A stretch of DNA of 64,000 nt from an uncultured Spirochaetota bacterium (lineage in GTDB: Bacteria > Spirochaetota > Spirochaetia > SZUA-6 > Fen-1364), in NCBI GenBank assembly GCA_963745235.1, contig CAVUXE010000003.1:1-64000 (forward strand), read 5' to 3'. The position numbers and the translations under genes are program-made. How positions within the stretch are numbered: the first letter of the stretch is position 1; each line of letters starts with the position of its first letter. Shown piece after piece: positions 2,675-48,400 of this stretch. The notes below the pieces were generated by a model. That model was given only the letters and a program-made list of their open reading frames with translations. It made no database searches and had not been told where the DNA came from.

Positions 2675-2940
2675 TTAGGTTTTCACGCGCTTACCAGCTT
2701 GGAAGCCGCCCACGGGCCACCGTACCCAAAAATGTCAGCCCAGGGTCGTGTTGGCTATTTCATCCATTCCCCAGCTCCATGAGATGCTTCTCATAGCCTG
2801 ATGTCGCTGCTTGAAAGTCAACGATGACAAGCTCGCCGCCTGGCTTGAGAACGCGTACCGCCTCGTCGATCGCCTGATTGCGTCCGGAATGGCTCGGAAT
2901 ATTGCGAATCGCCAAAGCTTGAGAGAGAACATCCGGGGTG
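2675..2940 (-). pseudogene. 3' remnant of a class I SAM methyltransferase
   Basis: Manual minus-strand translation gives LAIRNIPSHSGRNQAIDEAVRVLKPGGELVIVDF...YGGPWAASKLV with frameshifts and in-frame stops; no 5' half. Boundaries approximate. Confidence 0.7.
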
Positions 2941-3508
2941 GCGGTCAGTCAATGTGCTCCATACCTATCGTGCTCAAGATCGACTGCGCTGAGTAGATCG
3001 AATCGCCCATTATGGAAATCGCGGGGTCAACAGGTGCGTTGCGCTGCAAGACTATTCCTGCAGTTCATCGAGCTTCATCGCGGACAGCCTTGGTACTGCC
3101 GATCCCAAGGAATAGCTTGTTATTGTCTCAAATGCGAGACGCCGTCCGCTTCTTGGATTGATAAGAAGTTTCACGAGTACGACGGCGAGCACCAGAAGCG
3201 ACCTGAAATCCTTCAAAATAGGGATCATCCCTTCGATGCTGTTTTCATAAATTCCTTTTCTGAAGGTCGCAGCGCACAATTCCCGAAGCACATCTATCCG
3301 CGAGTGACTGCGGCCAGCAGCCCCCAGGATCGCTTGGATAGTAGAGTGACTTTTCAAAGCGGTAGGAGGGGATACGAAGCGCGGATCTGATGGGAGCATC
3401 TGACCCTTTGGCGCTCATATGGTAGACATGGAGAGCCGCCAGAGTTTGGTCAACAGGGGGGAACGTTCTTGAGGGGACCTTCCACATAGCCCCCCGTCGA
3501 AATCACAC

Positions 3509-6217
3509 TCACGATCGGGACGGACTTGGTGCAGCATCCAACACCCGTCTCAGAGTTTCAAGCAGGGTGTCGGCCGTGAAGGGCTTGGCGAGAAACTCTT
3601 GGATGCCGAGGTCCATCATTTTCTTTGACTGCCAGTCCGCCATGAGACCGCTGGTGGCGATGATTTTCACCTCAGGGTTGATCTTTCGAAGCGCTCGAGC
3701 GGTCGCCACTCCATCCATATAGGGCATCACCACATCGGTGATCACTGTCTGGATTTCCCCTTTCTTTTCTGCATAAAGAGCAACTGCCTCGGCCCCATCG
3801 TTCGCCGTGGCTACCCGGTAGCCGTAAAACTCCAGGATCTGCTTGGCAATCTCCCGCACGGCCGCCTCATCATCCACGACAAGGATCAATTCGCCCTCTC
3901 CCATCGGGATGCCCTCCGTCACCATTTCGTTTCTTTCCTCTACGAGGTGAGAAGTCGGGAGGTACACCTTGAAAGAACTCCCTTTGCCGATTTCACTGTA
4001 CAAGGTGATGAACCCCCCATGGCTTTTCACGATCGTGCGGGCCATAGACAGTCCCAGGCCTGTGCCTTTCCCCGGATCTTTGGTTGTGAAAAACGGCTCG
4101 AAAATCTTCTCCACGAGACCGGGTGCCATACCTGTGCCGGTGTCTTCGACCTTCAGCACCACGTAGTCGATCGGCTTGGCTTCAATATGCATTCGGACAT
4201 ACGTCTCGTCCAGATGGACCGTTTCCGTGGAGAGAGTAAGTTTTCCGCCATTCGGCATTGCGTCCCTCGCGTTCACACAGAGGTTCATCAGCACCTGGTG
4301 GATCTGGGTGGGGTCAGCGCTGATAGCGGGAAGGTCCTTCGGGATTGGGGCGCTTATCTGAATTGATTTGGGGAACGTCTCCTCCATGATCTGGACCACC
4401 TCACGGATGATGTGTTTCAGTTGGACCTCCGAGTGCTGCCCTTCCATACCTCGTGCAAAGCTGAGGACCTGGCGCACGATGGAAGCCCCCCGTTGGGCGG
4501 CCGTCCTGATGATGTCGAGGACGATCCTGGACTTCTCGTCGGCATGCTGAACGCTCAGGCCTTCGACCCCCATGAGTATGGGGGAAAGCACATTGTTCAG
4601 GTCATGGGCGATTCCCCCCGCAAGGGTGCCGAGGCTCTCCAGTCGTTGGACGCGCAGAAGCTGAGATTGGACGGCCCGACGCTCCGTAACATCTGTGTTC
4701 ACCGAAAGAATGCCGGTCGGGGTTCCCTGTGAGTCACGGATCAGGGTCAAGCTCGCCTCGACGATGAGCTCGCGGCCGTCCTTTGTCCTCGCATGGAGAT
4801 CTCCAGACCACTGTCCCTTTTCCATCACGATTGACGATGCTTTCATGAGTTCTTCCGCGTGCGCGGGGCTGTTCAGCAGGTCGTTCGCGTCTTTGCCCAG
4901 CGCCTCCTCCCGGCTCCATCCAAAGATTCTCGTCGCGCTCTTATTCCAGTAGAGAATGCGGTTGCGCATGTCGCGGACTAAGATGGCATCAGTTGTGATG
5001 TCAAGGAGAGCGGCCTGTTCCTGCTGTTTCTGCTCGGTTAGCTTTCGATGGGTAATGTCGTGACTGCTGCCCACGAGCCCGACCACGGCTCCCGCTTCTT
5101 CCCGGAGGGGTACTTTGGTAGTCAAAAGCCACCGAAGCTCTCCCTGGGCGGACCTGCCGAGCTCTTCCATACCGACGAGTTCGATGCCTTCCTCGATGAC
5201 ACGACGATCGTCGGTCCGGTACTTGTCCGCAATGTCTGGAGAATGGAAATCAGAGTCGGTTTTCCCGATCAGCTGCGCCGGATCCTGAACTCCCCGGAAA
5301 TCCGCTTCAGCCCGGTTGGCAAGAATGTAACGACCTTCGCGATCTTTCACGTACACTAAGTCGTGAAGGCTGTTGATAAGAGTGAGAAGGAGGCTCCTCT
5401 CCTGTTCCAGGCTATGCTGCAGGCGTTTGCGATCAGTGATGTTGTCGAAGATAGCAACGAAGTGCTCCCTTTGCGGGCAATACACAGAGATCGAGAACCA
5501 GATCTTCAGCTCCGGCACGTATGTCTCAAGCCTCTCAGGCGTGCCGCTAAGAGACACTCTGCCATAAACCTCGAATAGCTCGGGGTTGGACTCGCGTATG
5601 CCCGGAATCACTTCAGTTACCTTTTTCCCCACAACATTCCGCAACCCAGTCAAAGTCTCGAATGCACCATTCACTTCCAGGTAGATGAAGTCCTGTGGCT
5701 TGTTATCCTCGAAAATCATTCTGCAGTACGCGAATCCATTCAACATGTTCTGGAAAAGTGAACGATAGCCCTCCTCGCTTTTCCGCAGTTCCTCCTCAAC
5801 TCTCGTGCGCTCGGTGATATCTCTTGCGATGCCGATCAAACCCATGATCGTGCCTTCCTCATTCCTGAGAGGGAGCTTGACCGTATCGTAGTACCGTGTC
5901 TCACCTGCGATTTCGACCGGTTCCTGGGCGGCCCGGACCGTGGAGCCGGCCAGCGCTGCTATATCATCCTCCTGCCATCCCTTGATGCCCTTCTGCGGGT
6001 TTCCCATTACGAGCTCTGGGCTCCATCCATTCTCTATGTCCGTCTTTCCGTATGTTTCCTCGGGACGTTGCCCTAAGGCTCGGGCAAGGACTGAGTTGCA
6101 GAGGACCATGCGCAGTGCCGTGTCTTTTATGAAAATCAAGTCTGAGGAAGATTCCATGAGGCTTTGCAGAATATTGGAACTCGCCAGTGCACCCTCTGGC
6201 TCAGATCGATTTGTCAC
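3509..6217 (-). CDS. Cytoplasmic multi-PAS hybrid sensor histidine kinase with receiver (CckA-like)
   Basis: Four PAS/PAC units, H-box LAGGIAHDLNN, NLCVNARDAM, FEPFFTTK, GTGLGL, C-terminal REC (VVDDE, TDVVMP, KPF). GTG start after GGAG chosen; the ORF extends to 6265. Confidence 0.93.
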   Translation of the reverse strand: MTNRSEPEGALASSNILQSLMESSSDLIFIKDTALRMVLCNSVLARALGQRPEETYGKTDIENGWSPELVMGNPQKGIKGWQEDDIAALAGSTVRAAQEPVEIAGETRYYDTVKLPLRNEEGTIMGLIGIARDITERTRVEEELRKSEEGYRSLFQNMLNGFAYCRMIFEDNKPQDFIYLEVNGAFETLTGLRNVVGKKVTEVIPGIRESNPELFEVYGRVSLSGTPERLETYVPELKIWFSISVYCPQREHFVAIFDNITDRKRLQHSLEQERSLLLTLINSLHDLVYVKDREGRYILANRAEADFRGVQDPAQLIGKTDSDFHSPDIADKYRTDDRRVIEEGIELVGMEELGRSAQGELRWLLTTKVPLREEAGAVVGLVGSSHDITHRKLTEQKQQEQAALLDITTDAILVRDMRNRILYWNKSATRIFGWSREEALGKDANDLLNSPAHAEELMKASSIVMEKGQWSGDLHARTKDGRELIVEASLTLIRDSQGTPTGILSVNTDVTERRAVQSQLLRVQRLESLGTLAGGIAHDLNNVLSPILMGVEGLSVQHADEKSRIVLDIIRTAAQRGASIVRQVLSFARGMEGQHSEVQLKHIIREVVQIMEETFPKSIQISAPIPKDLPAISADPTQIHQVLMNLCVNARDAMPNGGKLTLSTETVHLDETYVRMHIEAKPIDYVVLKVEDTGTGMAPGLVEKIFEPFFTTKDPGKGTGLGLSMARTIVKSHGGFITLYSEIGKGSSFKVYLPTSHLVEERNEMVTEGIPMGEGELILVVDDEAAVREIAKQILEFYGYRVATANDGAEAVALYAEKKGEIQTVITDVVMPYMDGVATARALRKINPEVKIIATSGLMADWQSKKMMDLGIQEFLAKPFTADTLLETLRRVLDAAPSPSRS

Positions 6218-15141: not shown

Positions 15142-15795
15142 ATGACCAGGAGAGGAGCATTCATTCTCAGTTTCCTGGGAGCCTTGGCGCTCGCAGGGAC
15201 CACAGCCTCATACGCTGAGAATCTTTTCGAGCTGGCAAAAGGCGGCGCGCCGCTGCAGGTGCAAGCCGCCGTGGACGCCGGAGCGGATGTCAATGAGCGG
15301 GGAAGAAATGGCGTGACCCCGTTGATGCTCGCAGCGCTGTTCAACAGGGACCCGGACGTCATTCAGGTGCTCATAAAGGCAGGGGCAAGGCTTGCGGACA
15401 CAAACTCTGACGGCCGCACTGCCCTCCAGCTTGCCGCCCAGTTCAGTGGCAACCCGGCGGTCATCACTGCGCTCCTGAACGCCGCCGGGGTCACCGACAG
15501 TGACGCAAAGACGGCTCTGCTGTTTGCCGCGGAGAGCAACCCGAATCCTGACACTATCGCGGCGCTCGTGGGAGCAGGACTGAACGTTGACGCCACAATG
15601 TCCGATGGGCGCACTTCCCTGATGCTTGCAGCCGAGTTCAATCAGAACCCTGCGGTCATTTCCGCTCTCCTGGTGGCCGGAGCGAATGCAAAGCTCAAGT
15701 CCAGTGAGGGGAAAACGGCGCTTGAATATGCAGAGGAAAACCCAAAGCTGAAGGGGACCCAGGAATACCTTGAGCTGAAGAGCGTGACCCGATAG
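15142..15795 (+). CDS. Secreted ankyrin-repeat protein
   Basis: Signal peptide; GVTPLMLAA, GRTALQLAA, GRTSLMLAA, GKTALEYA. Confidence 0.9.
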   Translation: MTRRGAFILSFLGALALAGTTASYAENLFELAKGGAPLQVQAAVDAGADVNERGRNGVTPLMLAALFNRDPDVIQVLIKAGARLADTNSDGRTALQLAAQFSGNPAVITALLNAAGVTDSDAKTALLFAAESNPNPDTIAALVGAGLNVDATMSDGRTSLMLAAEFNQNPAVISALLVAGANAKLKSSEGKTALEYAEENPKLKGTQEYLELKSVTR

Positions 15796-30823: not shown

Positions 30824-31881
30824 CCGGCGGCTCTCCGCGCCGGGCGGCGCGCCAGCACGATGAAAAGGAGAAGGGCAAGAAGGATGTTGACCACCGAATA
30901 AGGCAGCCCCTGGGTGATCTGGAGAATGTCGCCCGCCGACGTGATGATGGCAAAAAGGAAGGCCATGAGCAGGATGCCCAGCGGCCGTCCCCCCGCCAGC
31001 CAGGCAATGAGGAACCCCGTGAAGCCGTACCCGGGGGAGAGCCCCTGGCGCAGCCTGCCATGGATGCCCGACACCTCGCCCATGCCTGCCAGTCCTGCCA
31101 TCCCGCCCCCGATTGCCAGCGCGACAACGATCCATGCGGCCACGGGGATGCCGAGCCGCTGGGCCGCCTCCTGGTTTCCGCCGATGGAGCGCATCTGGAC
31201 TCCCCACCGGGTTCTCTCCATCAGCAGCCAGTAGAGAAGCAGGGAAACGAGCGCAATGATGAGGCCCGCGTGGATACGCGTGTTGAAGAAGCTTGGCAGG
31301 CGGGCGGCATCCGGGAAGGCGGGAGACTGGGGATACGCGGAGCTCTCCGCGCTGCGCCAGGGGCCGAAAATGAAGTAGCTGACGATGAGAGGAGCCACGT
31401 AGTTCAGCAGAAGAGTCGCTATGGTCTCATTGACCAGCTTTCTCGCCCTGAGGATCCCGGGTATCGCGGCCCATACGGCGCCGCCGGCGAAGCCCAGAAG
31501 AGTGACGATGGGCAGCAGGACCCAGGCCGGCAGGTGGGGAAAGCTGAGAGCGCCGGCGGTGGCCATCCAGGCCCCCAGGTACAGCTGGCCCTCTCCGCCG
31601 ACGTTGATGAGACCGAGGCGGGAAGGAATGGCGACGGCCACGGCGGTCAGGAGAATGGGGGTCATTCGAACGAGGAGCTCGGAAAAGCCGTACGCATTTG
31701 CGAGCGTGTAGAGGAAGGTATCCGCGTAGGCCTTGAGGGGATTTTTGCCGGCCACCAGGAGGATCCCCCCGAAAACGGCCAGAACAACGAGGACAATGCC
31801 GGCATAGCGGCCCGTCTCCCCCACCACGCGCGGAAACCGGCGCGCGGCGGCATTCCTTTCAGCCGGCACGGGTTGCCTCAC
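30820..31881 (-). CDS. Nucleoside-type ABC permease
   Basis: LINVGGEGQL, VNETIATLLLNY, GYGFTGFLIAWLA. Confidence 0.9.
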   Translation of the reverse strand: MRQPVPAERNAAARRFPRVVGETGRYAGIVLVVLAVFGGILLVAGKNPLKAYADTFLYTLANAYGFSELLVRMTPILLTAVAVAIPSRLGLINVGGEGQLYLGAWMATAGALSFPHLPAWVLLPIVTLLGFAGGAVWAAIPGILRARKLVNETIATLLLNYVAPLIVSYFIFGPWRSAESSAYPQSPAFPDAARLPSFFNTRIHAGLIIALVSLLLYWLLMERTRWGVQMRSIGGNQEAAQRLGIPVAAWIVVALAIGGGMAGLAGMGEVSGIHGRLRQGLSPGYGFTGFLIAWLAGGRPLGILLMAFLFAIITSAGDILQITQGLPYSVVNILLALLLFIVLARRPARRAAG

Positions 31882-39185: not shown

Positions 39186-39647
39186 ATGGCGTTTTCACTG
39201 TCCTCGGCGGGCTTCACGCCCGCAGGCGGAATACCCAGGACATTCACCGCTGACGGCAGGGATATTTCCCCCGCGCTGAGCTGGGAGGACCCGCCGCCGG
39301 GGACCCAGGCTTTTGCTCTCGTCTGCGATGACCCGGACGCCCCCGCGGGAACGTGGGTCCACTGGGTGATCTGGAACATCCCGGCCTCGGCAAAGGGGCT
39401 CGGTGAAGCAGTCCAGCACATCAAGACCCTGCCGGACGGCAGCGCTCAGGGCAAAAACGACTTCGGGCGGATGGGCTACGGGGGCCCGAGCCCTCCGCCC
39501 GGAAAGGCGCACAGGTACTTCTTCCGATTGCATGCGCTGCGGGAAAAGCTTCCCCTTGCAGCCGGGGCAGGCCGCGGGGAGCTGGAACGAGCCATGCAAG
39601 GGAAGATACTCGCCACCGCCGAGGTCTTCGGCACCTACAAGAGATGA
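39186..39647 (+). CDS. YbhB/YbcL (PEBP, Raf kinase inhibitor-like) protein
   Basis: SPALSW, DDPDAP, WVHWV, GYGGPSPPPG, HRYFF. Confidence 0.92.
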   Translation: MAFSLSSAGFTPAGGIPRTFTADGRDISPALSWEDPPPGTQAFALVCDDPDAPAGTWVHWVIWNIPASAKGLGEAVQHIKTLPDGSAQGKNDFGRMGYGGPSPPPGKAHRYFFRLHALREKLPLAAGAGRGELERAMQGKILATAEVFGTYKR

Positions 39648-40300
39648 GGACGCTGCTCGATCGTTCTCCCGCGGAGATCGTCCAGGTCATCATCATCATC
39701 GTGATGAGCCTGACGGTCCACGAGTTCGCGCATTCCCTGGTGACCATCACGCTGGGAGACGACACACCCCGGCGCCAGGGCCGGCTGACGTTGAACCCGC
39801 TGGCTCATATTGACCTGGTCGGCTTCATCATGCTGGTCATTGCCGGGTTCGGATGGGCAAAGCCTGTCCAGATCAACCCTGCCAACCTGAAAAAGCCGCG
39901 GCGGGACGAGATCCTGATCGCCCTCGCCGGTCCGGTTTCGAATCTCCTGTTCGCGATGGTGGCCGTTGTCGTCATGGGGGCGGTCTTTTCCACCCATGCG
40001 CTGGTTTCTCCACGCTCGCTGCAGGACTTCGGCAACTTCATGCTGATGCTTGCGGCCATCAACGTGAGCCTCGCCATCTTCAACATGATCCCCATCCCGC
40101 CCCTGGACGGGTCGCACCTGGTGACGCCTTTCCTCGGCAGGATCAACACTGCCGTGGCGGCAACGTACTTCCGCTATGGATCTCTCCTCCTGCTGGGCAT
40201 CATCCTCATTCAAAGCTTCACGAGAGTGGACATACTGCACATCGGCCGCCTCACCTATTCCATCGTGGCCTGGATGCTCCGCCTGGTCGGAATTGCCTGA
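39644..40300 (+). CDS. Site-2 protease family (M50) metalloprotease
   Basis: HEFAH, GRLTLNPLAHID, AGPVSN, FNMIPIPPLDG. Confidence 0.92.
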   Translation: MRTLLDRSPAEIVQVIIIIVMSLTVHEFAHSLVTITLGDDTPRRQGRLTLNPLAHIDLVGFIMLVIAGFGWAKPVQINPANLKKPRRDEILIALAGPVSNLLFAMVAVVVMGAVFSTHALVSPRSLQDFGNFMLMLAAINVSLAIFNMIPIPPLDGSHLVTPFLGRINTAVAATYFRYGSLLLLGIILIQSFTRVDILHIGRLTYSIVAWMLRLVGIA

Positions 40301-40322
40301 GGCGGCACCGGCCCATCTTACG

Positions 40323-40381
40323 TGCTTAAAATTATGCAATAACTCTTGACAGCCGCCGCACATTGTGCTTAAAATTAAGCA
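40323..40381 (+). promoter_or_regulatory. Sigma70 promoter flanked by two 16-bp operators (probable BlaI-family sites)
   Basis: TGCTTAAAATTATGCA 40323-40338; TTGACA 40346-40351, N18, TAAAAT 40370-40375 inside TGCTTAAAATTAAGCA 40366-40381. Confidence 0.8.
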
Positions 40382-40405
40382 TGTTGACGGAAAGGAGGGC
40401 GGATC

Positions 40406-41089
40406 ATGCGACGCATGGCTTTTCTCACCTTTGGCGTGGCGTCTTTGGTTCTTCTGGCCGGGTGCTCAAAGCCGGATACGAGGTCGACGTTTGACATCGC
40501 GCGGGACGGAACACCGCAGGCTGTCAAGACCGCAATCGACAGGGCAAAAGGCACGGACGGCAATACGCGGGAATACACCCAGGGCAAGACCCTGCTGATG
40601 TGGGCTGCCCAGTTCAACAGCAACCCGGAGGTGACCGCGGTGATCCTGAAATCCGGCGCAGATCTGGAGGCGCGGGACTACGACTCATCCGCGTACGGCT
40701 GGACGGCGCTGATGTGGGCGGCAGATTCTTCGAAGAACCCCGAGGTGATCACGACCCTTGTCAAAGCGGGCGCTGATGTCAAGGCAAAGGACAAGGAAGG
40801 CTTTACTCCGCTCCTGATCGCCGCGGAGAACAACGAGAACGCCGCGGTTGTCGCCAGGGTCGCAAGCGTCGGTTCAGACCTGGAGGCGAAGGACAACAAC
40901 GGATATACGGCCCTGATACAGGCCGCAAGCAAGAATCACAACCCTGACGTCGTTGTCGCGCTGCTCAGTGCGGGAGCCAACGCAAAGGTGAAAAACGCCA
41001 AGGGATACACGGCCCTGGACTACGCGAAGGTCAACCAGTATCTGAAAAACACTGACGCATTCAAAAAACTCGAGGAGGCATCCCGGTAG
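40406..41089 (+). CDS. Ankyrin-repeat lipoprotein
   Basis: Lipobox LAGC; GKTLLMWAA, GWTALMWAA, GFTPLLIAA, GYTALIQAA, GYTALDYA. Confidence 0.92.
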   Translation: MRRMAFLTFGVASLVLLAGCSKPDTRSTFDIARDGTPQAVKTAIDRAKGTDGNTREYTQGKTLLMWAAQFNSNPEVTAVILKSGADLEARDYDSSAYGWTALMWAADSSKNPEVITTLVKAGADVKAKDKEGFTPLLIAAENNENAAVVARVASVGSDLEAKDNNGYTALIQAASKNHNPDVVVALLSAGANAKVKNAKGYTALDYAKVNQYLKNTDAFKKLEEASR

Positions 41090-41128
41090 ACGGGCCTGGT
41101 CCGCAGGCGACCAGAAGGGAGATCGAGC

Positions 41129-42271
41129 ATGAAATTCCTGCAAGCATCCCTCGCATTTGTCATGGCTGTCAGTGCCGTCGTCATGGGCTGCCAGCAGGCG
41201 CCGAAAGAGGTGAAGATTGCCATTGTCGCGCCTCTCTCAGGCGGCCTCTCGGGGTGGGGGGACCTGCTCCGCAACGGTGTCATGTTGGCAGTGGATGAAT
41301 GGAACGCGCAGGGCGGTGTCCTGGGGAAGAAGATTTCTGTTGTCAGCGCTGACAGCCAGGGTGACCCCGCGGTGGTCGTCAGCGCGGCCAACACGGTGAT
41401 TGCCTCGGAGAAAGTTCACTATATGGTCGGGGATGTCTTCTCCAGCCTTTCAATTCCCCTTTCGAACGCGGCAAACGGCGCAAAGGCCATCGTGATCACG
41501 CCGACATCCACAAACAGTGCGGTCACGGTCGACGCGAATGGCTCAACCAAGGCGTACGTCTTTCGCGCCTGCTTCAGCGATCAGTTCCAGGGCCGTGCGG
41601 GTGCCTCTTTCGCGTTCGGAAATCTGAAAGCCCGAAAGGCCTGCGTGATGTTCGATCCCGCGGATGTCTACGTCCGCGGCCTGGCGGAGGCATTTGCGGA
41701 GGCCTTCACCAGGCGCGGCGGAACCGTCGTGGGAAAGGAGAGCTATTCGAACACTGACACCGACTTCTCAAAGACTCTGGCCGCAATCAAGACCGCGGCT
41801 CCCAATGTCATCTACCTCCCGGCGGCCTCCATCCCACTGGTGAACCTCGTCACGGAAAAGGCAAAGGAGGCGGGGATCGGGGCTGCTTTCCTGGGAGGCG
41901 ATTTCTGGGATTCCCCTCAACTCGACCTTGATGCGGCGGAGGGAAGCTACTTTACGAATCACTACTGGCCGGCTGACCAGAGGCCGGAAGTGCGGGCCTT
42001 CGAAAAGGCATACGATCAGAAATATTCGGCCCCCGGTGCGCCGGACATCGTTGCCGGTTTATCCTACGATGCCGCGAACCTGCTGCTGCAGGCAATCCAG
42101 AAAGCAGGCAGGGACGACGTTGCCAGCGTGAGAGCCGCCCTGGAAGGCATCAGCTTCAAGGGGGTCAGCGGCACAATCACTTTCGACGCTCAGCACAACG
42201 CGGTGAAGAGCGCGACGATTGTCCACGTCACCGGCGGAAAGACGGTCCTTGACTCGTATGTTTCACCTTGA
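41129..42271 (+). CDS. LivJ/LivK-type substrate-binding lipoprotein (orphan)
   Basis: VMGC lipobox, APLSG, NAQGGVLGKKI, YVFRACFSD, GGDFWD, SYDAA. Confidence 0.9.
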   Translation: MKFLQASLAFVMAVSAVVMGCQQAPKEVKIAIVAPLSGGLSGWGDLLRNGVMLAVDEWNAQGGVLGKKISVVSADSQGDPAVVVSAANTVIASEKVHYMVGDVFSSLSIPLSNAANGAKAIVITPTSTNSAVTVDANGSTKAYVFRACFSDQFQGRAGASFAFGNLKARKACVMFDPADVYVRGLAEAFAEAFTRRGGTVVGKESYSNTDTDFSKTLAAIKTAAPNVIYLPAASIPLVNLVTEKAKEAGIGAAFLGGDFWDSPQLDLDAAEGSYFTNHYWPADQRPEVRAFEKAYDQKYSAPGAPDIVAGLSYDAANLLLQAIQKAGRDDVASVRAALEGISFKGVSGTITFDAQHNAVKSATIVHVTGGKTVLDSYVSP

Positions 42272-42277
42272 CTCCGA

Positions 42278-43381
42278 TCAGGGCGAAATATACGAGTCGA
42301 AGGCTACTTTTCCTCCCGTGACGTGCTCAACAACAACACCTTTCAGGGGGGTGTGGCTAGCATTCATGGCGATTGTGCCGGTCACCCCCACAAAGGAGAT
42401 CTTTTCCAGCGCGGCACGCACGGCGTCGGTGTTGTCGACCCCGGCGTCGCGGATTGCCGTCAGGAGCAGGTTCGCTGTGTCATAAGAAAGTGCGGCGGCG
42501 AAGCTCGGCGCGTCACTGTACTTTGCGCGATAAGCCTTCACGAAGGCCTGTGCTTCCGGCCGCGGGTCATCCGGCCTGTAATGGGTCGTGAAGTAGCTGC
42601 CATCCGCCGCCTTTGGGTCCAGTGAGGCGTCGTCCCAGCCGTCCCCGCCCATGAAGGTGGCGGTGATCCCTTTCTCTCTGGCCTGCCGCGTGACAAGGTT
42701 CACGATCTGGAGGGAGAGTGCGGAAAGATAGACCAGGTCGGGCCGGGCGCTCCTGATCCGGGCAAGGGTATCGGTGAAATCAGTATCCGTGACGGAATAG
42801 CGCGCCGTTCCCAGCACGGCGCCGCCGAGTCTCGTGAAGCTTGCGGAAAAGATATCCGCAAGGTCGCTGATGTAGACATTGGTGGGATCCACCATGATGA
42901 ATGCCTTCCGTGCCTTCAAGTTCCTGACCGCAAAAGAAGCAGCCAACCTTCCCTGAGTCGCATCGTCAAAGCAGGCTCGAAAGACATAGGGCTTGGGAGC
43001 TCCATGCGTGTCCACAGTCACCGCGGCAACCGTGGAAGTCGGCGTGATCTGAATGACTTTCGCCGCGTTGGCAACCTCGGATACCGCGATGGACAGGGGT
43101 GAAAAGATGTCCCCGATGATGTAGCTGGCATGATCCTTCATTATGACATCCTTCGCTGCCTCGACAGCGGAATCCACGTCGTCAACGCTGGTGCCCTTCA
43201 TGACCATCGTGATCTGTCTCCCCAGCACTCCTCCTCTGGCATTCCACTCATCGATTGCGAGCTGGGCCCCTTCTTGCGCGCCTCCCAGGGAGGCCAGCAC
43301 GGCGATCTTCAAAGGCGCCCTCTGGCAGCCCATTATCAGGGCGAAAGTAAGAGGGACCAGGATCAAGGCTTGACGCTTCAT
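42278..43381 (-). CDS. LivJ/LivK-type substrate-binding lipoprotein (orphan paralog)
   Basis: IMGC lipobox, NARGGVLGRQI, YVFRACFDD, GGDGWD, SYDTA. Confidence 0.9.
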   Translation of the reverse strand: MKRQALILVPLTFALIMGCQRAPLKIAVLASLGGAQEGAQLAIDEWNARGGVLGRQITMVMKGTSVDDVDSAVEAAKDVIMKDHASYIIGDIFSPLSIAVSEVANAAKVIQITPTSTVAAVTVDTHGAPKPYVFRACFDDATQGRLAASFAVRNLKARKAFIMVDPTNVYISDLADIFSASFTRLGGAVLGTARYSVTDTDFTDTLARIRSARPDLVYLSALSLQIVNLVTRQAREKGITATFMGGDGWDDASLDPKAADGSYFTTHYRPDDPRPEAQAFVKAYRAKYSDAPSFAAALSYDTANLLLTAIRDAGVDNTDAVRAALEKISFVGVTGTIAMNASHTPLKGVVVEHVTGGKVAFDSYISP

Positions 43382-43429
43382 GGGAACCTCCGCTCGCCCT
43401 GCTGATGCCCCCGACCGACAGAAGTGCTG

Positions 43430-44911
43430 CTAACTTTTTACCCGGTCGTTTCTGCCCCAGGCGTCCAGCACTCGCCAACCTCCCGCCTCTTTCTCCATTG
43501 TGAATGTGAAGTCGTCAAGATAGTCCCCTGTTTCCAGGAGGAGGCGCACAACGGCCGTGTCTCCGGAGACGGTTATCGCCGGGTCGTAGAAGGTCTGGAA
43601 CTTGAACATGCCGAAGTCCTGCTCTATGACGCGTTGGCAATACGGTGATGCAACCGGAAACTTAGTATACCAGCATGTCCGCGGCATGTAGAGTCCGCCC
43701 TGTACAAACACTGAAAGCATCCCTTGCAGGCTGTGAGAGTTGAACCCATTCTCGAATTGGATCAAGGTATCGAGGATTCGTGCCTCATCCGCGTTCCTGA
43801 CCCTGTATTCCGTCAGGTAGAGCGAGCCATACCTCTTCCCCGGGTCCTGCCCTGTTGCGCCCAGCAGCGCCGCGGCAAGAAGCAGGAGCGCGGCAAGGCC
43901 GGACAAGGCGAGGCACTTTTTCACGGATTTTCGTTCTCCGACGATTGTTCGGATCCTGTCTTTGAGGATCTTTTTCCTTCCTCCCGAGAAGCTGAGCCCC
44001 GCGAACAGCGCCGGTTCCCGGCACAGCTGCGCCGCATCCAGGATGCAGGCCGCGTACGCTTGCGGACGAACTCCGCTTTCGATCACCGCTTCATCGCATG
44101 CTTTTTCCTGCTCCAGATAGAGCCGCGCGTAAGCGGCCCAGACCGGCGGCACGAACCACAGGAGAGAGCAGATCCAGTACGCGATGGCAAGCGTGCATGA
44201 GTCTCCACGCCTGACGTGACGAAGCTCGTGGAGCAGGACGGATTGCCTGCCAGCCGGGGACCATCCCCTGATGCCGGACGGCAGGAAGATGACCGGGCGG
44301 ATTATTCCGCGAGTCATCGGAGTGACGCAGAGCTCGCTCTCCACCACGCTGACCTTCCGGCGGATGCCGATGCGCCGGGAAAGACCCCGGACCATGCGCT
44401 CGTATCCGCGCGTCGTGTCACGGGTTTTTCGTGAAAGACCCAGGAGCTGGAGCCTGCCCCGGATGATTCGTAACCATCCCGCCGCGGCGCCCGCGATCCA
44501 GGCGAGCATGGCGACTGACGGCCAGAGGCTGAGCCACACCTGACCCGTCGATATCTGGCGCCATTCCCGGGCCGCCAGGGGAGGCATGCCTCCCGACAAT
44601 CCGAAGGTCCCCGACGATGGAAGCAGCGCGGAGGAAAGCGCGGCAAGAGCGCCGTGGGTGCCGGGCGCACTGTGTGGGAGAGGCACGTGGAAAACCGGTC
44701 CCGTGAGCGTCAGCGCGAAAATGACGAGGCTGCCTGCGATGGCGGACAGCCAGAGGATGTGCCTCAGCTTCGCGGACGCTTGCTTCAAGATCCACAGGGC
44801 GCCGAATGATACGGCAAGCAGGATTGACACCCTGAAGCAGGCCAACAGGAGGGCCGGAATGAACGGGAGCGCCGTCCGGGCGGCCGCCAGGAGAATGGAG
44901 GGCTCTGTCAT
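43430..44911 (-). CDS. BlaR1/MecR1-like M56 metalloprotease with NTF2-like C-terminal domain
   Basis: SAKLRHILW, RPVIFLP, LLHELRHVRRGD, WFVPPVW, EQEKACD, LKDRI; about 135-aa extracytoplasmic tail ending ITVSGDTAVV...GWRV. Confidence 0.9.
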   Translation of the reverse strand: MTEPSILLAAARTALPFIPALLLACFRVSILLAVSFGALWILKQASAKLRHILWLSAIAGSLVIFALTLTGPVFHVPLPHSAPGTHGALAALSSALLPSSGTFGLSGGMPPLAAREWRQISTGQVWLSLWPSVAMLAWIAGAAAGWLRIIRGRLQLLGLSRKTRDTTRGYERMVRGLSRRIGIRRKVSVVESELCVTPMTRGIIRPVIFLPSGIRGWSPAGRQSVLLHELRHVRRGDSCTLAIAYWICSLLWFVPPVWAAYARLYLEQEKACDEAVIESGVRPQAYAACILDAAQLCREPALFAGLSFSGGRKKILKDRIRTIVGERKSVKKCLALSGLAALLLLAAALLGATGQDPGKRYGSLYLTEYRVRNADEARILDTLIQFENGFNSHSLQGMLSVFVQGGLYMPRTCWYTKFPVASPYCQRVIEQDFGMFKFQTFYDPAITVSGDTAVVRLLLETGDYLDDFTFTMEKEAGGWRVLDAWGRNDRVKS

Positions 44912-45291
44912 GACGAGTCACCTTTCTTCGACTGCTCGATGACCTGGATGAGCTCGCGCACGTCCTCATCGCTCAGGTCCCCGGCATGCAGCGCCACCAT
45001 TGCGGCCACGGCCCGGGGAAGCGAGTCTCCGAAGTAGGTGCTGAGAAGGCTCTTCACCGCGCCCCGGACAGCCTTCGTGCGCGGGGCGGTCGGACTATAG
45101 ATGTACTTCTTGCCGCGCTTGACGTGCTTGAGGTGCCCTTTGCGCTCGAGCACATTCACGATGACGCGCACCGCCGAGTAGCTTGCCGGTTCGGGCATTG
45201 CGGCCCGGATCTCCTCCACTGACGCGCTGGAGCCGCGGTAGATGATTTCCATGACCTGCCGCTCCCGCCTGCTCAGAGCCGAATGAAGCAA
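44908..45291 (-). CDS. BlaI/MecI/CopY family repressor
   Basis: LSRRERQVMEIIY, SYSAVRVIVNVLERKGHL, YIYSP, LLSTYFGDS; TTG start after GGAGG; ATGA-coupled to the M56 gene. Confidence 0.92.
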   Translation of the reverse strand: MLHSALSRRERQVMEIIYRGSSASVEEIRAAMPEPASYSAVRVIVNVLERKGHLKHVKRGKKYIYSPTAPRTKAVRGAVKSLLSTYFGDSLPRAVAAMVALHAGDLSDEDVRELIQVIEQSKKGDSS

Positions 45292-45305
45292 TGACCCTCC
45301 TCTCG

Positions 45306-45341
45306 TGCTTAATTTTGAGCATAAAATCGAGGGGGTGTCAA
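45306..45341 (-). promoter_or_regulatory. Promoter and auto-operator of the blaI-like gene
   Basis: Minus strand TTGACA(45341-45336)-N18-CAAAAT inside TGCTCAAAATTAAGCA (45321-45306). Confidence 0.8.
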
Positions 45342-45434
45342 GACGGCGGGTGTCACGACGGCGCGGCAATTGACGCGTCTCCCGCGGCCGAGATAAAGTT
45401 TCCTGTTTCCCTCGATCACGTTCGATCACTTTCG

Positions 45435-48400
45435 ATGAGACGCCTGGGAATAGATATCGGGTCCCTCACCCTCTCCATGGTCCTCCTCGAGGAGGGGCGG
45501 ATCGTGGCACGGCACTCCTGCGCGCACGAGGGGAGGCCGGGCCCCCTCGTGAAGTCACTGGTCGACCGCGCTCCTTTCTTTCCCTGGGAATGCGCGGGAG
45601 TGACGGGAAGCCTCGCGGGCGCGGGCAAGGGAATCATCGACAACACCCTGGCGACCATCGAGGGAGCTCGCAGGCTCCTTCCCACCTGCGGCAACCTCAT
45701 CGCGATGGGAGGCCAGAGCTTCTCTCTCATCCTTCTTGATGGCGACGGCCGCTACATCGAGCACGTGTCCAACCCGCCGTGTGCGTCAGGCACCGGTTCA
45801 TTCCTGGAGCAGCAAGCCGAGCGGTTGGGGCTCGGCATCCAGGACTTTGCGGAGCGCGCTGCCGCCTTCTCGGGGGAGATTCCGAGGATAGCGACACGCT
45901 GCGCGGTCTTTGCAAAGACGGACATCGTTCACGCAATGCAGGAAGGCTACTGCCTGGACGCCATCTGCGCCGGACTGTGCGAGGGAATTGCCCGCAGCAT
46001 GCTGGACATGCTCCTCAAGGGAAGACGGTTGTCGCCGCCTGTCGGCCTGGTGGGCGGAGTTGCCCTCAATGAGAAGATCGTACAGACCATCGGCCGGATC
46101 CTCGGGATGACAGTGGCGGTCCCTGAGGACTGCCAGTACGCCGGGGCGCTCGGCGCCGCTCTCCTGGGATCGGATGCGACCCTCGGAGACCTGCATCCGG
46201 CGCGCGGGGGCCGCGCGGTCCGACAGCCCCTTCCCAGCGTGCTTGCCGACTACCCTTCCCTTGACGGTTTCGACGTCTCCCTGCGGGATGACGTGGAAGT
46301 ATTCAGACCACGGGAGCGCCCCGACGGAGACGGCTTCTTCCTCGGCATCGACATAGGCTCTACGAGCACGAAGGCGGTGCTCGTAGGCGCCGACGGGAAG
46401 ATCGGAGACGGGTTCTACACTCGCACGAGCGGAGATCCCGTGGGCGCCGTGCAGCGGTTGCTCACGGCCGTGGAAGGCGTGCGCGGCGGCGACGCACCAC
46501 GCCTTCTCGGAGTAGCCACAACGGGGTCCGGCCGGTCCATCATCCGCCACGTGTTCCAGGCTGACCGCGAGATGAACGAGATCACGGCCCACGCAAAGGC
46601 CGCGGTTTTCCTCCAGCCGGACGTGGACACCATCATCGAGATAGGAGGGCAGGACTCGAAGTTCACGCGCATCAGGGACGGCGAGGTGTACTTCTCCACG
46701 ATGAACTACGTCTGCGCGGCGGGCACGGGGAGCTTCATCGAGGAGCAGGCAAAGAGGCTGGGCGCAAGCCTTGCGGATTTCTCTGACATGGCCCTTTCCG
46801 AGCCCGCGCCTTTCACGAGCGACCGGTGCACTGTCTACATGGAGCGGGACCTCGCGGCACTGGTCGGGGAAGGATGGCCGCGGGAGACCCTGGCCGCGGC
46901 CGTCCTGCACTCTGTGCGGGACAATTACCTCTCCAAGGTCGTAGGCAAGAGCGCCCTGGGAGAGACCATCGTTTTTCAGGGGGCCACCGCGCGCAACAAG
47001 GCGCTGGTGGCCGCCTTCGAGCAGCACCTGGGCAAGCCGCTGCACGTGTCTCCGTGGTGCCACCTGACGGGCGCGGTCGGCGCCGCTCTTCTCTGCCGCG
47101 AGGAGGGACTGGCAGCTTCCCGCTTCCTCTGGGAGACGGGACCGATTGCACTCGAATCAGAAGAATGCCGGCTGTGCGCGAACCACTGCCGCCTTACGGT
47201 CATGGACCGCGGCGGCCTTCGCAGCGGCTGGGGAATGAAGTGCGGGCGCGAATACGCGGACAGAAAGCCTCTGCGGCCGGCGGGCCGGACCTCCTCAGTC
47301 TCCTCTATCATAGAGAGGTTCCAGGAAGCCATGCAGCCCCTCTACCAGCAACCAGAGGCGCTCTCCCAATCCGCCCAGCGCAGGAAGTCGATCTCAATCG
47401 GTGTGCCCCGCAGCCTGTACAACGTTTCCTACGAGCCGCTGTGGCACAGCTTCCTTTCCCGCCTTGGGTTCTCCGTGGCCGGCTCGGACCAGCGCACGGG
47501 CGCCCGGGAAGCCGGAACAGAGCTCGTGAACTCTGATTTCTGCGCTCCCATGGTCCTCTCCCATGGTCATGTCAGACGCCTGGTAGACGCGGGGGCAGAC
47601 TTTGTCTTCCTGCCGGGCAGTGGAGAACAGCGCAGAGGGACCCGAGCCGATCCGCTCCACGTTCCGCAGAAGGGACTCGGACAGCGCGTACTGCTACTAC
47701 TCCCAGTACCTGCCGTCGGTTGTCGGGAAGCTGCCGGGCATTCCCCGTCTCAGAGCGCCTCATCTCGCCGCTGCTGCCGCTTCGTGAAAGAAGCCCTGAG
47801 GAGACAAGCGGACTCCTCCATGACGCTCTTGCGGCGAAGGTCCCCGGCTTGACCCGTGAGGAGACGCAGCAGGCATTCACGGAGGCAAACGCCCTTTTCA
47901 CGGCGGCGCGGACACGGCTCGCGGGGAGTTTCCAGCGTGCAGGAAATGACGAGAGTGGGCTGCGCATCCTCCTGCTGGGCAGGCCCTACGTTGTTTTCGA
48001 TGAGAGCCTGAGCCTCTCCCTGCCGCAGACTTTCGAAGAGCTGGGGGCCGCGGTGTTCTGGCAGGAGGAGCTTGACCTGGAGGGCTTCGCGCTGACGTAC
48101 GGGGCCCAGTACCTGGAGCGCATGCACTGGCATTACGGCAAGCTCATCGTGAGAGCCGCTGAGTTCGCGGCTCGCACGGAGAACCTGTTCCCCGTCTTTC
48201 TGACCTGCTTCCGATGCAGCCCGGATTCCTTCCTGATGAGCTACGTGAAGGACATCCTGACCCATTTCGGAAAGCCATTCCTGTTCCTCCAGCTCGACTC
48301 CCACGCTTCGGACGTCGGCTACCTGACCCGGATCGAGGCCGCCCTGCATTCGTTCCGCAACTACCGCAAGGGGGAAAAAGCCGCGCGAAAGGCGCCATTG

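Follow-up and report, generated by a model that had tools for sequence, protein, structure and literature searches.

A probable non-canonical BlaI-M56 switch with a predicted NTF2-like sensor and a predicted palindromic operator in an uncultured Spirochaetaceae bacterium

BlaI and BlaR1 form the textbook antibiotic-sensing pathway, in which BlaR1 turns its last, C-terminal domain outwards and the operator of staphylococcal BlaI, like that of CopY, has a TACA-N2-TGTA core. Most relatives of this pathway are nevertheless reported to be without its antibiotic sensor: according to the accessible part of one report, only ~6% of M56 proteins carry a penicillin-binding domain and ~94% are non-canonical BlaIR, with 254 domain architectures recorded (bioRxiv 10.64898/2026.04.08.717257). 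For the non-canonical examples studied so far, the accessible parts of two reports give both the signal and the target sites as unknown (bioRxiv 10.64898/2026.04.08.717257, 10.64898/2026.08.03.742534). The locus analysed here lies in a 64,000-nucleotide stretch of DNA (the window; contig C3 of genome G000) from an uncultured Spirochaetaceae bacterium of soil or peat, and comprises blaI, encoding a BlaI/MecI/CopY-family repressor, the adjoining gene of an M56 (BlaR1-family) membrane metalloprotease, and genes for an ankyrin-repeat lipoprotein and two LivJ-type solute-binding proteins (SBPs), SBP1 and SBP2. Judged by its genes, the system is a member of the non-canonical BlaIR class, having an M56 protein without a transpeptidase domain, an adjacent upstream blaI and a predicted regulon without a beta-lactamase.

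We propose, with a probability of about 0.7, that the locus is a BlaIR-type regulated-proteolysis switch, in which the repressor would bind the palindrome TGCTTA-N4-TAAGCA, the M56 protease would sense through an NTF2-like domain and derepression would raise three units encoding exported proteins. The elements of the switch in the window are the following.

40323..40338, plus strand: predicted operator OP1 of the promoter P_ank, TGCTTAAAATTATGCA, 7 nt upstream of the -35 box; scored at 24.7 bits by a matrix of relatives' sites only
40346..40375, plus strand: promoter P_ank, TTGACA-N18-TAAAAT (boxes at 40346-40351 and 40370-40375), sigma-70-like, 11/12 consensus positions
40366..40381, plus strand: predicted operator OP2 of P_ank, TGCTTAAAATTAAGCA, over the -10 box; 28.7 of a possible 29.3 bits with the relatives-only matrix
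40406..41089, plus strand: ankyrin-repeat lipoprotein, 227 amino acids (aa), Pfam Ank_2 2.6e-33, lipobox LAGC
41129..42271, plus strand: SBP1, LivJ-type solute-binding lipoprotein of the hydrophobic amino acid uptake transporter (HAAT) type, 380 aa, Pfam Peripla_BP_6 2.9e-64
42278..43381, minus strand: SBP2, LivJ/HAAT-type solute-binding lipoprotein, 367 aa, Pfam Peripla_BP_6 4.8e-55, last gene of the blaI operon
43430..44911, minus strand: M56 (BlaR1-family) membrane metalloprotease, 493 aa, Pfam Peptidase_M56 1.9e-26
43433..43849, minus strand: C-terminal extracytoplasmic sensor domain of M56, about residues 355-493, NTF2-like fold in an AlphaFold2 model
44908..45291, minus strand: BlaI/MecI/CopY-family repressor, 127 aa, Pfam Penicillinase_R 6.7e-27, model positions 1-115 of 115
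45306..45321, minus strand: single predicted OP2-type operator of P_blaI, TGCTCAAAATTAAGCA, over the -10 box; 24.7 bits
45312..45341, minus strand: promoter P_blaI, TTGACA-N18-CAAAAT (boxes at 45341-45336 and 45317-45312), sigma-70-like, 10/12 consensus positions

The repressor gene starts with TTG behind a GGAGGG ribosome-binding site and its stop codon overlaps the ATG of the M56 gene (ATGA); 48 nt separate M56 from SBP2 and 39 nt the ankyrin gene from SBP1. A lipobox is present in each of the three exported proteins (LAGC, VMGC and IMGC). As stated in the original prediction, which was made from the letters of the window, none of the five genes has a beta-lactamase, penicillin-binding protein (PBP), permease or ATPase domain in Pfam, and an Rfam search of the module found no RNA family. 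The two operons converge, with the stop codons of SBP1 and SBP2 6 bp apart (42269-42280) and no terminator-like site found between them, and were both derepressed together their transcripts would enter each other's genes.

Three copies of a 16-bp near-palindrome stand where the original prediction had placed them, at 40323, 40366 and 45306 (minus strand), and chance is ruled out as their source: dinucleotide-preserving shuffles gave a mean of 0.04 matches as against the three found, and none of 100 shuffles reached the four matches (one being the palindromic reverse reading of 40366) that the motif scan returned at up to two mismatches. P_ank and P_blaI, which face each other, are the two best sigma-70-like sites in 39500-46000 and each has its -10 box inside a palindrome. 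The geometry first described holds for the copies at 40366 and 45306, which cover the -10 boxes, and has to be completed for the copy at 40323, which is a second operator upstream of the -35 box, with 43 bp from its centre to that of OP2, and which aligns with the OP1 of orthologous blaI promoters. The spelling TGCT(T/C)AAAATTA(A/T)GCA is that of the window sites, and over relatives the consensus is a 6-4-6 palindrome of the form TGCTTA-N4-TAAGCA. Based on its distribution in related genomes, this palindrome very likely serves as operator for the BlaI-family repressor encoded next to it.

When 40 related genomes were searched with the M56 protein, six congeners (G006, G014, G011, G010, G019 and G017; 50-56% identity) yielded orthologues and G036 yielded one that is more distant (38%). 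The module OP1-TTGACA-OP2 lies directly upstream of the orthologous blaI in G014, G019, G017, G036 and G010, where it reads OP1 (about TGCTTAAAAATAAGCA), 7-8 nt, CTTGACA, 13-14 nt, OP2 (about TGCTTAGAATTAAGCA, containing the -10 box), about 8 nt and the ribosome-binding site. In G006 it is OP2 that stands at blaI, a divergent promoter having the full module, and counting this genome the two-operator module is conserved at orthologous blaI-M56 pairs in six related genomes; in G011 OP1 only is present upstream of blaI. Across relatives the distance from OP1 to OP2 is 43-45 bp, and the spacers have diverged whereas the operators and the -35 box are kept, TTGACA being invariant in an alignment of 11 promoters. 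Of 15 metagenome contigs with M56 relatives, all nine that reach the DNA upstream of blaI have at least one site there (the other six begin inside blaI or M56), and at every locus that includes this DNA the sites are within ~60 nt of the blaI start.

The sites are also specific to the pair. In five pair-holding genomes scanned whole, sites were found at the pair in 5/5, and 13 of the 14 sites with at most one mismatch are at blaI-M56 loci, whereas five relatives in which no M56 orthologue was detected have three isolated sites in total, each with a G/C-rich centre, and yielded neither an A/T-centred nor a paired site. With a matrix built from 14 relatives' sites only, the five sites of G000 rank 1st, 2nd, 3rd, 4th and 6th in 5.8 Mb, OP2 of P_ank being the top match of the whole assembly. 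The original prediction had proposed a genome scan with a matrix from the three window sites; the present scan returned no further convincing site beyond three promoters, two in the window and one on another contig. The BlaI orthologues share 57-94% identity, and all eight have YSAVR..VN.LERKG unchanged; the window's protein matches the Penicillinase_R family model (PF03965) over its full length, as members of the BlaI/MecI/CopY family do, in which C-terminal dimerisation helices follow a winged-helix DNA-binding domain, and with a palindrome covering the -10 boxes of P_blaI and two further promoters it is predicted to bind at its own promoter as well as at theirs.

The M56 protein is the protease partner that had been assumed, with an intact HEXXH motif (HELRH, residues 228-232) and EXXXD motif (EKACD, 269-273), and residues H228, E229, H232, D237, E269 and D273 are invariant in 10 M56 sequences. 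As in BlaR1/MecR1, hydrophobic segments (~5-43, 49-76 and 329-355) lie on either side of the zinc-protease domain, the last one directly before the C-terminal domain, a layout which matches the BlaR1 plan and by analogy would have that domain face outwards. An AlphaFold2 model of the isolated domain, built on a 15-sequence alignment (predicted local distance difference test, pLDDT, 91.1), has the NTF2-like fold, an alpha+beta cone whose N-terminal helices pack against a curved antiparallel sheet; the helices predicted here span model residues 37-54, 58-62 and 86-99, and there are five strands. Foldseek assigned the model a probability of 1.00 to NTF2-like, SnoaL-like and ketosteroid-isomerase-like structures, with 445 matches at E <= 0.001, the best ones NTF2-like, and VIA-align superposed 119 residues on 2rgq with Z 15.2 and a root-mean-square deviation of 2.5 A (Z 12-15 over 108-129 residues among the matches) and also matched the NTF2 module of the RsgI9 anti-sigma factor (7sjy, Z 11.9). 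The best Pfam match of the domain is DUF4440 (E 0.037), which at 14.9 bits is below the cut-off of 25.2, and the transpeptidase families gave no match to it at E up to 1, nor was a penicillin-binding domain found. The sensor family is rare: a set of 1.84 billion proteins contains 22 representatives at E <= 0.001, mostly stand-alone proteins of 140-175 aa; the stand-alone members start with hydrophobic leaders, which is consistent with a sensor outside the cytoplasm. M56 proteins of the type clustered as P0006 were not found outside genus g1, matches at E 1e-90 being present in 7/92 genomes of the order, all g1 and including G000, and a profile search of genome contigs with the M56 alignment returned six loci, four of them distant.

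G019, G017 and G010 share the repressor, the operators and the protease core but have a different C-terminal domain, which is DJ-1/PfpI-like (L028:9191-10738, L029:8788-10389 and L031:8463-10073). As the alignment places Asn-Ser at the positions of Cys-His in the enzyme PH1704, a pair that we take to be catalytic, this domain is probably non-catalytic in the congeners. The M56 of G036 has yet another C-terminal tail.

The regulon had been described as self-contained, and this does not hold, since a third two-operator promoter lies on contig C35 (G000:C35:338736-338794, minus strand), where OP1, TTGACA and an OP2 over a TAGACT -10 box keep the 43-bp spacing. It precedes a gene of smallB (C35:338151-338618, minus strand), a family of ~165-aa exported proteins. 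A second small exported family, smallA (146-151 aa), follows M56 in the G006 and G014 lineages and in 7/15 metagenome loci, and G006 has a smallA paralogue under its divergent two-operator promoter. At the NTF2-type loci compared, the gene after M56 always encodes an exported protein, either SBP2 or smallA. Neither small family matches Pfam; for the proteins without a Pfam match (smallA, smallB and a 345-aa open reading frame (ORF) on C35 described below) the nearest named clusters of a protein atlas score 0.77-0.84, which makes them leads and not assignments, those of the small exported families being lipocalin-like or allene-oxide-cyclase-like (0.77-0.82, leads only).

SBP1 has as its best solved relative a branched-chain amino-acid binding protein (3td9, 8.7e-50), and both SBPs match the two-lobe Peripla_BP_6 family and have the lipobox export signals expected of HAAT-type SBPs. 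They are 54% identical to each other and 54-57% identical to the SBP at C35:131816-132964, beside Liv-type permeases. As this transporter's own SBP is the closest paralogue of both in G000, the plainest and most likely reading of the relationship is that SBP1 and SBP2 serve as extra subunits for the C35 Liv-type transporter. In a tree the two fall into separate well-supported clades, that of SBP1 being sister to the C35 transporter-linked clade (99/98), and both retain every column invariant across 23 family members. HAAT-type SBPs are typically encoded beside LivHM-type permeases and ATPases, and the description of these two as orphans was borne out: the nearest BPD_transp_2 match on contig C3 ends at 31683, 9.4 kb off, whereas the six other strong Peripla_BP_6 genes of G000 have a BPD_transp_2 permease match within ~1.1 kb.

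The outputs have not travelled with the switch. The original prediction looked to a conserved blaI-M56-SBP-ankyrin order in relatives, and among 54 ORFs around six orthologous loci no ankyrin or LivJ-type SBP gene was found, most NTF2-type loci having a small exported protein instead of an SBP. What remains of that expectation is the linkage of SBP2 in a few metagenomic relatives, where it lies downstream of M56 in L081 (99% M56 identity) and L082 (88%), both of the window's own lineage; the linkage of the ankyrin gene to blaI-M56 was seen in G000 only. Across the 20 other genomes of the genus no SBP2 match exceeds 57% identity, the level of the transporter-linked paralogue. All four contigs of the SBP2-type cluster P0037 are equal in size to contigs of P0006, an M56 cluster with 58-59% identity to the M56 of the window, and one contig size, 44,628 bases, is common to M56, SBP2-type and SBP1-type members; these equal sizes are suggestive of an M56-SBP2 linkage in the P0006 lineage and are no proof of it. 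The best ankyrin orthologues (G006, G007 and G015; 57-62% identity) are all without an operator, and none was found at 11 loci around the best ankyrin matches, a two-mismatch match in L065 not being operator-like. G000 has 59 ankyrin matches, of which the ankyrin gene is one, and G001 has 85; this small ankyrin-repeat family is greatly expanded in the genus and has another member in the window at 15148-15789.

Within 40339-40365 of the window, the stretch of P_ank between its -35 box and OP2 (GCCGCCGCACATTG) resembles the corresponding spacer of the blaI promoters of G017 and G019 (GCCGCCCGGACATG; L029 and L028), and is closer to them than the window's own blaI promoter is. Given this likeness, it is conceivable that the full ancestral promoter module now drives the ankyrin-SBP1 operon.

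We propose that a dimer of the BlaI-family repressor would bind the 16-bp palindromes TGCTTA-N4-TAAGCA, OP2 overlapping the -10 box and OP1, where present, lying just upstream of the -35 box at a distance of 43-45 bp, or about four helical turns. Three promoters would be controlled in this way, those of blaI-M56-SBP2 (OP2 only), of ankyrin-SBP1 (OP1 and OP2) and of the small exported gene on C35 (OP1 and OP2). In the co-translated M56 zinc protease the extracytoplasmic NTF2-like domain would take the place of the penicillin-binding domain, and a signal from outside reaching it would activate the cytoplasmic protease, by analogy with BlaR1. The signal would most likely be a small molecule, probably hydrophobic, bound in the cone-shaped pocket that the NTF2-like fold typically has. 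Once BlaI is inactivated, all three promoters would be derepressed, the outputs being exported binding-type proteins among which the SBPs would most likely act as extra substrate-binding subunits of the C35 Liv-type ATP-binding cassette (ABC) transporter.

Several observations weigh against this proposal. The DNA binding, cleavage and expression of the system are predictions from sequence, and the RNA evidence consists of three short metatranscriptome contigs that could be carried-over DNA. The raw count of the motif is not above that of a reversed-pattern control (3-8 per genome), and hence the case for the operator rests on position, pairing and A/T-rich centres. The resemblance of BlaI to solved BlaI proteins is weak, the only match being the N-terminal domain of B. 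licheniformis BlaI (1p6r; E 1.2e-4, residues 8-73), outside which lies the region where repressors of this family are cleaved between their two domains, and a model of full-length M56, from a 10-sequence alignment, is poor in the sensor (pLDDT <55), which folds well as an isolated domain alone. Against the intact 164-aa orthologue of G011, the smallB gene on C35 shows two frameshifts, ~140 nt from each other, that interrupt its reading frame, and may be a pseudogene or reflect an assembly error. The G000 assembly is estimated to be 86% complete, so that further operator targets may be absent from it. Finally, since the output genes are not conserved with the switch, a coherent function of the regulon may not exist.

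The outputs could instead be periplasmic sponges or inhibitors, the ankyrin lipoprotein blocking an enzyme and the SBPs and small barrel-like proteins sequestering a harmful ligand; all products at the three promoters are exported, non-enzymatic and of the binding type, neither SBP has an adjacent permease, the nearest named clusters of the small families are lipocalin-like or allene-oxide-cyclase-like (0.77-0.82, leads only), and in Bdellovibrio a periplasmic ankyrin protein reportedly inhibits a cell-wall enzyme. This is the alternative that we take most seriously, unlikely as it is, given that the SBP1 clade is sister to transporter-linked SBPs (99/98), that both SBPs keep the columns invariant in 23 members as expected of ordinary transport SBPs, and that the ankyrin gene is one of 59 in its genome with its closest orthologues not under the operator. 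Next in rank, and quite improbable in our view, is sensing by three components, with SBP2 (smallA in other lineages) as a co-receptor that when loaded docks on the NTF2-like domain and triggers cleavage of the repressor, ankyrin-SBP1 and the C35 gene being the outputs. Binding proteins do dock on some sensor kinases and chemoreceptors, and SBP2 is placed in one transcript with blaI-M56, the 48-nt gap before it showing no predicted promoter; the linkage recurs in L081 (99%), L082 (88%) and possibly the P0006/P0037 lineage, and the gene after M56 always encodes an exported protein, smallA in 7/15 metagenome loci, G006 and G014. An unrelated BlaI-M56 pair on contig C88 of the same genome faces an orphan SBP_bac_1 protein, and adds a little weight. 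Autoregulated operons, however, end just as commonly in an output gene, as with the small exported protein beside cenIR, the swapping of the partner after M56 between lineages fits an output better, and the equal contig sizes of P0037 and P0006 do not prove adjacency. A more general form, in which M56 is a binding-protein-dependent receptor, the exported protein encoded after it captures the signal and hands it to the NTF2-like domain, and an exchange of either the sensor (NTF2-like or DJ-1/PfpI-like) or the partner protein would re-tune the specificity, we hold as more speculative again; if true, it would describe a three-component pathway of BlaI, BlaR and a binding protein, of which the C88 pair with its orphan SBP would be another instance.

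Far less probable are the two explanations that touch the switch itself. The palindrome could be the site of another regulator, or a promoter element common to a few promoters, as its role is predicted, its raw count does not exceed that of the reversed control and it is unlike the TACA-N2-TGTA core of staphylococcal BlaI and CopY. Yet the sites track the blaI-M56 pair (5/5 genomes with the pair, and no A/T-centred or paired site in 5/5 without it), they lie no more than ~60 nt from the blaI start at every locus with that DNA, and their dyad symmetry, with two dyads per promoter, matches other BlaI-family factors, and we hold this explanation for very improbable. The family names Penicillinase_R and BlaR1 peptidase M56, and the annotation of one homologue as 'beta-lactamase regulating signal transducer', would suggest a conventional beta-lactam response with its resistance gene elsewhere; with an NTF2-like sensor in which no transpeptidase or penicillin-binding domain was found, no beta-lactamase or PBP at the three operator promoters and no other strong site in the assembly, this is scarcely credible. 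The switch in which M56 acts on BlaI, with transport SBPs among its outputs, is the reading we retain.

G000 is an assembly of 5.85 Mb in 104 contigs with 61% G+C. Metagenomes of soil, peat and sediment contain the window stretch, at least half of its sampled words being present in each of six runs, which come from three studies. Contigs of two metagenome runs, neither of them from the study whose run had most of these words, match the locus at 99-100% identity and span both promoter regions and the SBP1/SBP2 junction. An independent contig from a soil metagenome, covering 45100-45500, has the identical operator at 45306-45321. Three short contigs from two peat metatranscriptomes map to the ankyrin gene, the blaI/M56 junction and SBP2; two RNA contigs came from X19 and two from X20, one of the latter matching over 41 bases only, with the remainder unlike the window stretch. 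These contigs are a weak hint of transcription, too few and too short to establish it or its level, and parts of the window without such cover carry no information on expression.

Some further observations concern the surroundings of the candidate sites and families. Downstream of smallB on C35 the next ORF (C35:336534-337571) encodes an outer-membrane-like protein of 345 aa without a Pfam match, and a molybdenum/tungsten cofactor (Moco) riboswitch lies directly upstream of it (66.8 bits); as it has its own riboswitch, this ORF is probably a unit separate from smallB. A smallB gene is just upstream of blaI in G011 and in L092, and two smallB genes precede the ankyrin orthologue in G007. Paralogues of smallB in G007, G000:C54 and G015 carry a different conserved upstream element, about AATTACGTAGTTCTTACGCAT, which in G007 adjoins a divergent LuxR-type (GerE) regulator, the operon ending with the orthologue of the window's ankyrin gene. 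Other smallB copies adjoin mobile elements (L076:4941-7406, L080:3070-4515), the one on C57 being beside an ISAzo13-type DDE transposase and an IS200-type transposase and that on C54 beside a group II intron reverse transcriptase.

G000:C35:337805-337924 (L047:9806-9925), minus strand: Moco riboswitch, RF01055
L075:8560-8760, L080:6220-6420 and L077:4990-5200: smallB upstream element, AATTACGTAGTTCTTACGCAT

Two other matches were considered as targets and dropped, C92:4455 (19.9 bits, the next match of the scan after the operator sites) and the look-alike C28:9766, each of which is single, lies in a repeated element and does not cover the -10 box in the same way. This repeated element has the near-palindrome TGCATAATATAAAGCA or TGCACAATATAAAGCA beside a TATAAT box in two homologous places, and these are probably chance matches or the sites of another regulator. 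The unrelated BlaI-M56 pair on C88 (L048, ~2864-6080), whose blaI has one in-frame TGA in the assembly, faces a SBP_bac_1 solute-binding gene (4773-6080) without an adjacent permease across a short intergenic region, and in this region a related palindrome, TGCCAATATTTTAACA, lies at C88 4677-4692, immediately upstream of that blaI, and resembles the OP2 of G036.

When set beside BlaI-BlaR1 and MecI-MecR1 of Staphylococcus aureus and Bacillus licheniformis, the locus has the same winged-helix Penicillinase_R repressor encoded upstream of an M56 protein with HEXXH and EXXXD motifs, and the same arrangement of palindromic operators over its own and target promoters, with two dyads per promoter possible. 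It differs in that the sensor is NTF2-like in the model and not a penicillin-binding domain, that neither a beta-lactamase nor a PBP2a target was found, and that the predicted operator reads TGCTTA-N4-TAAGCA and not the TACA/TGTA core; the penicillin-binding sensor and the linked resistance gene, both missing here, are two features that define canonical BlaR1/MecR1 systems. The CenIR pair of Clostridioides difficile is closer, in that it too is a BlaIR pair that lacks a domain for binding beta-lactams, and its regulon is small and has no beta-lactamase, with a small exported protein at its head; as far as the accessible part of that report goes, the CenR tail is mostly unstructured, in contrast to the confidently folded NTF2-like sensor predicted here, and its nine common M56 architectures include neither NTF2-like nor DJ-1/PfpI domains (bioRxiv 10.64898/2026.04.08.717257). 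Our outputs are lipoproteins (ankyrin and LivJ-type SBPs), and our operators were defined by genome comparison, in both of which the locus departs from CenIR as described in the accessible text. In Clostridium thermocellum, BlaI_0696 and BlaI_1845 are autoregulated and have regulons of 1-3 promoters with hypothetical-protein targets, and the accessible part of their description likewise gives inverted repeats, two dyads to a promoter ('binding sites for four protomers'), but with a half-site GTCTAT, 5 nt apart, and a different phylum and outputs (PMC8457756). Their sites were confirmed by DNA affinity purification sequencing (DAP-seq) and gel shifts according to the same source, whereas ours are predicted by comparison of genomes (PMC8457756). 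The atypical mycobacterial BlaIR and PvmSR of Pseudomonas aeruginosa likewise combine an M56 protein with a BlaI-family regulator and are unrelated to beta-lactam resistance, but the accessible part of their report describes the M56 without a sensor domain, whereas here a folded sensor is predicted that is swapped in congeners (bioRxiv 10.64898/2026.08.03.742534).

The combination had been put forward as not described before. Among the papers that a search of the open-access literature listed, none joins M56/BlaR with an NTF2-like, SnoaL, DUF4440 or DJ-1 sensor, which does not prove that there is none; BlaIR without a penicillin-binding domain, on the other hand, is already described as the majority of the family, as far as the source cited at the outset is accessible. 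In spite of its practical limits, an uncultured host and non-conserved outputs, the locus is a compact study case, with an operator defined by comparison, a conserved two-operator layout, a predicted three-promoter regulon and a rare folded sensor. The natural swap of NTF2-like and DJ-1/PfpI-like sensors on a constant output stage makes sensing by non-canonical BlaR proteins testable in a heterologous reporter.

An NTF2-like module on a protein of transcription control is also seen in the S1C-NTF2 bi-domain of the RsgI9 anti-sigma factor (7sjy), where it lies on the extracytoplasmic side of a membrane regulator, and the extracytoplasmic function (ECF) sigma factor J is said to carry a SnoaL_2 extension. 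No sequence relation of the sensor to the NTF2-like modules of RsgI9 or ECF sigma J was detectable. Whereas in those systems the transducer is an anti-sigma or a sigma factor, in the spirochaete it would be an M56 protease acting on a BlaI-type repressor.

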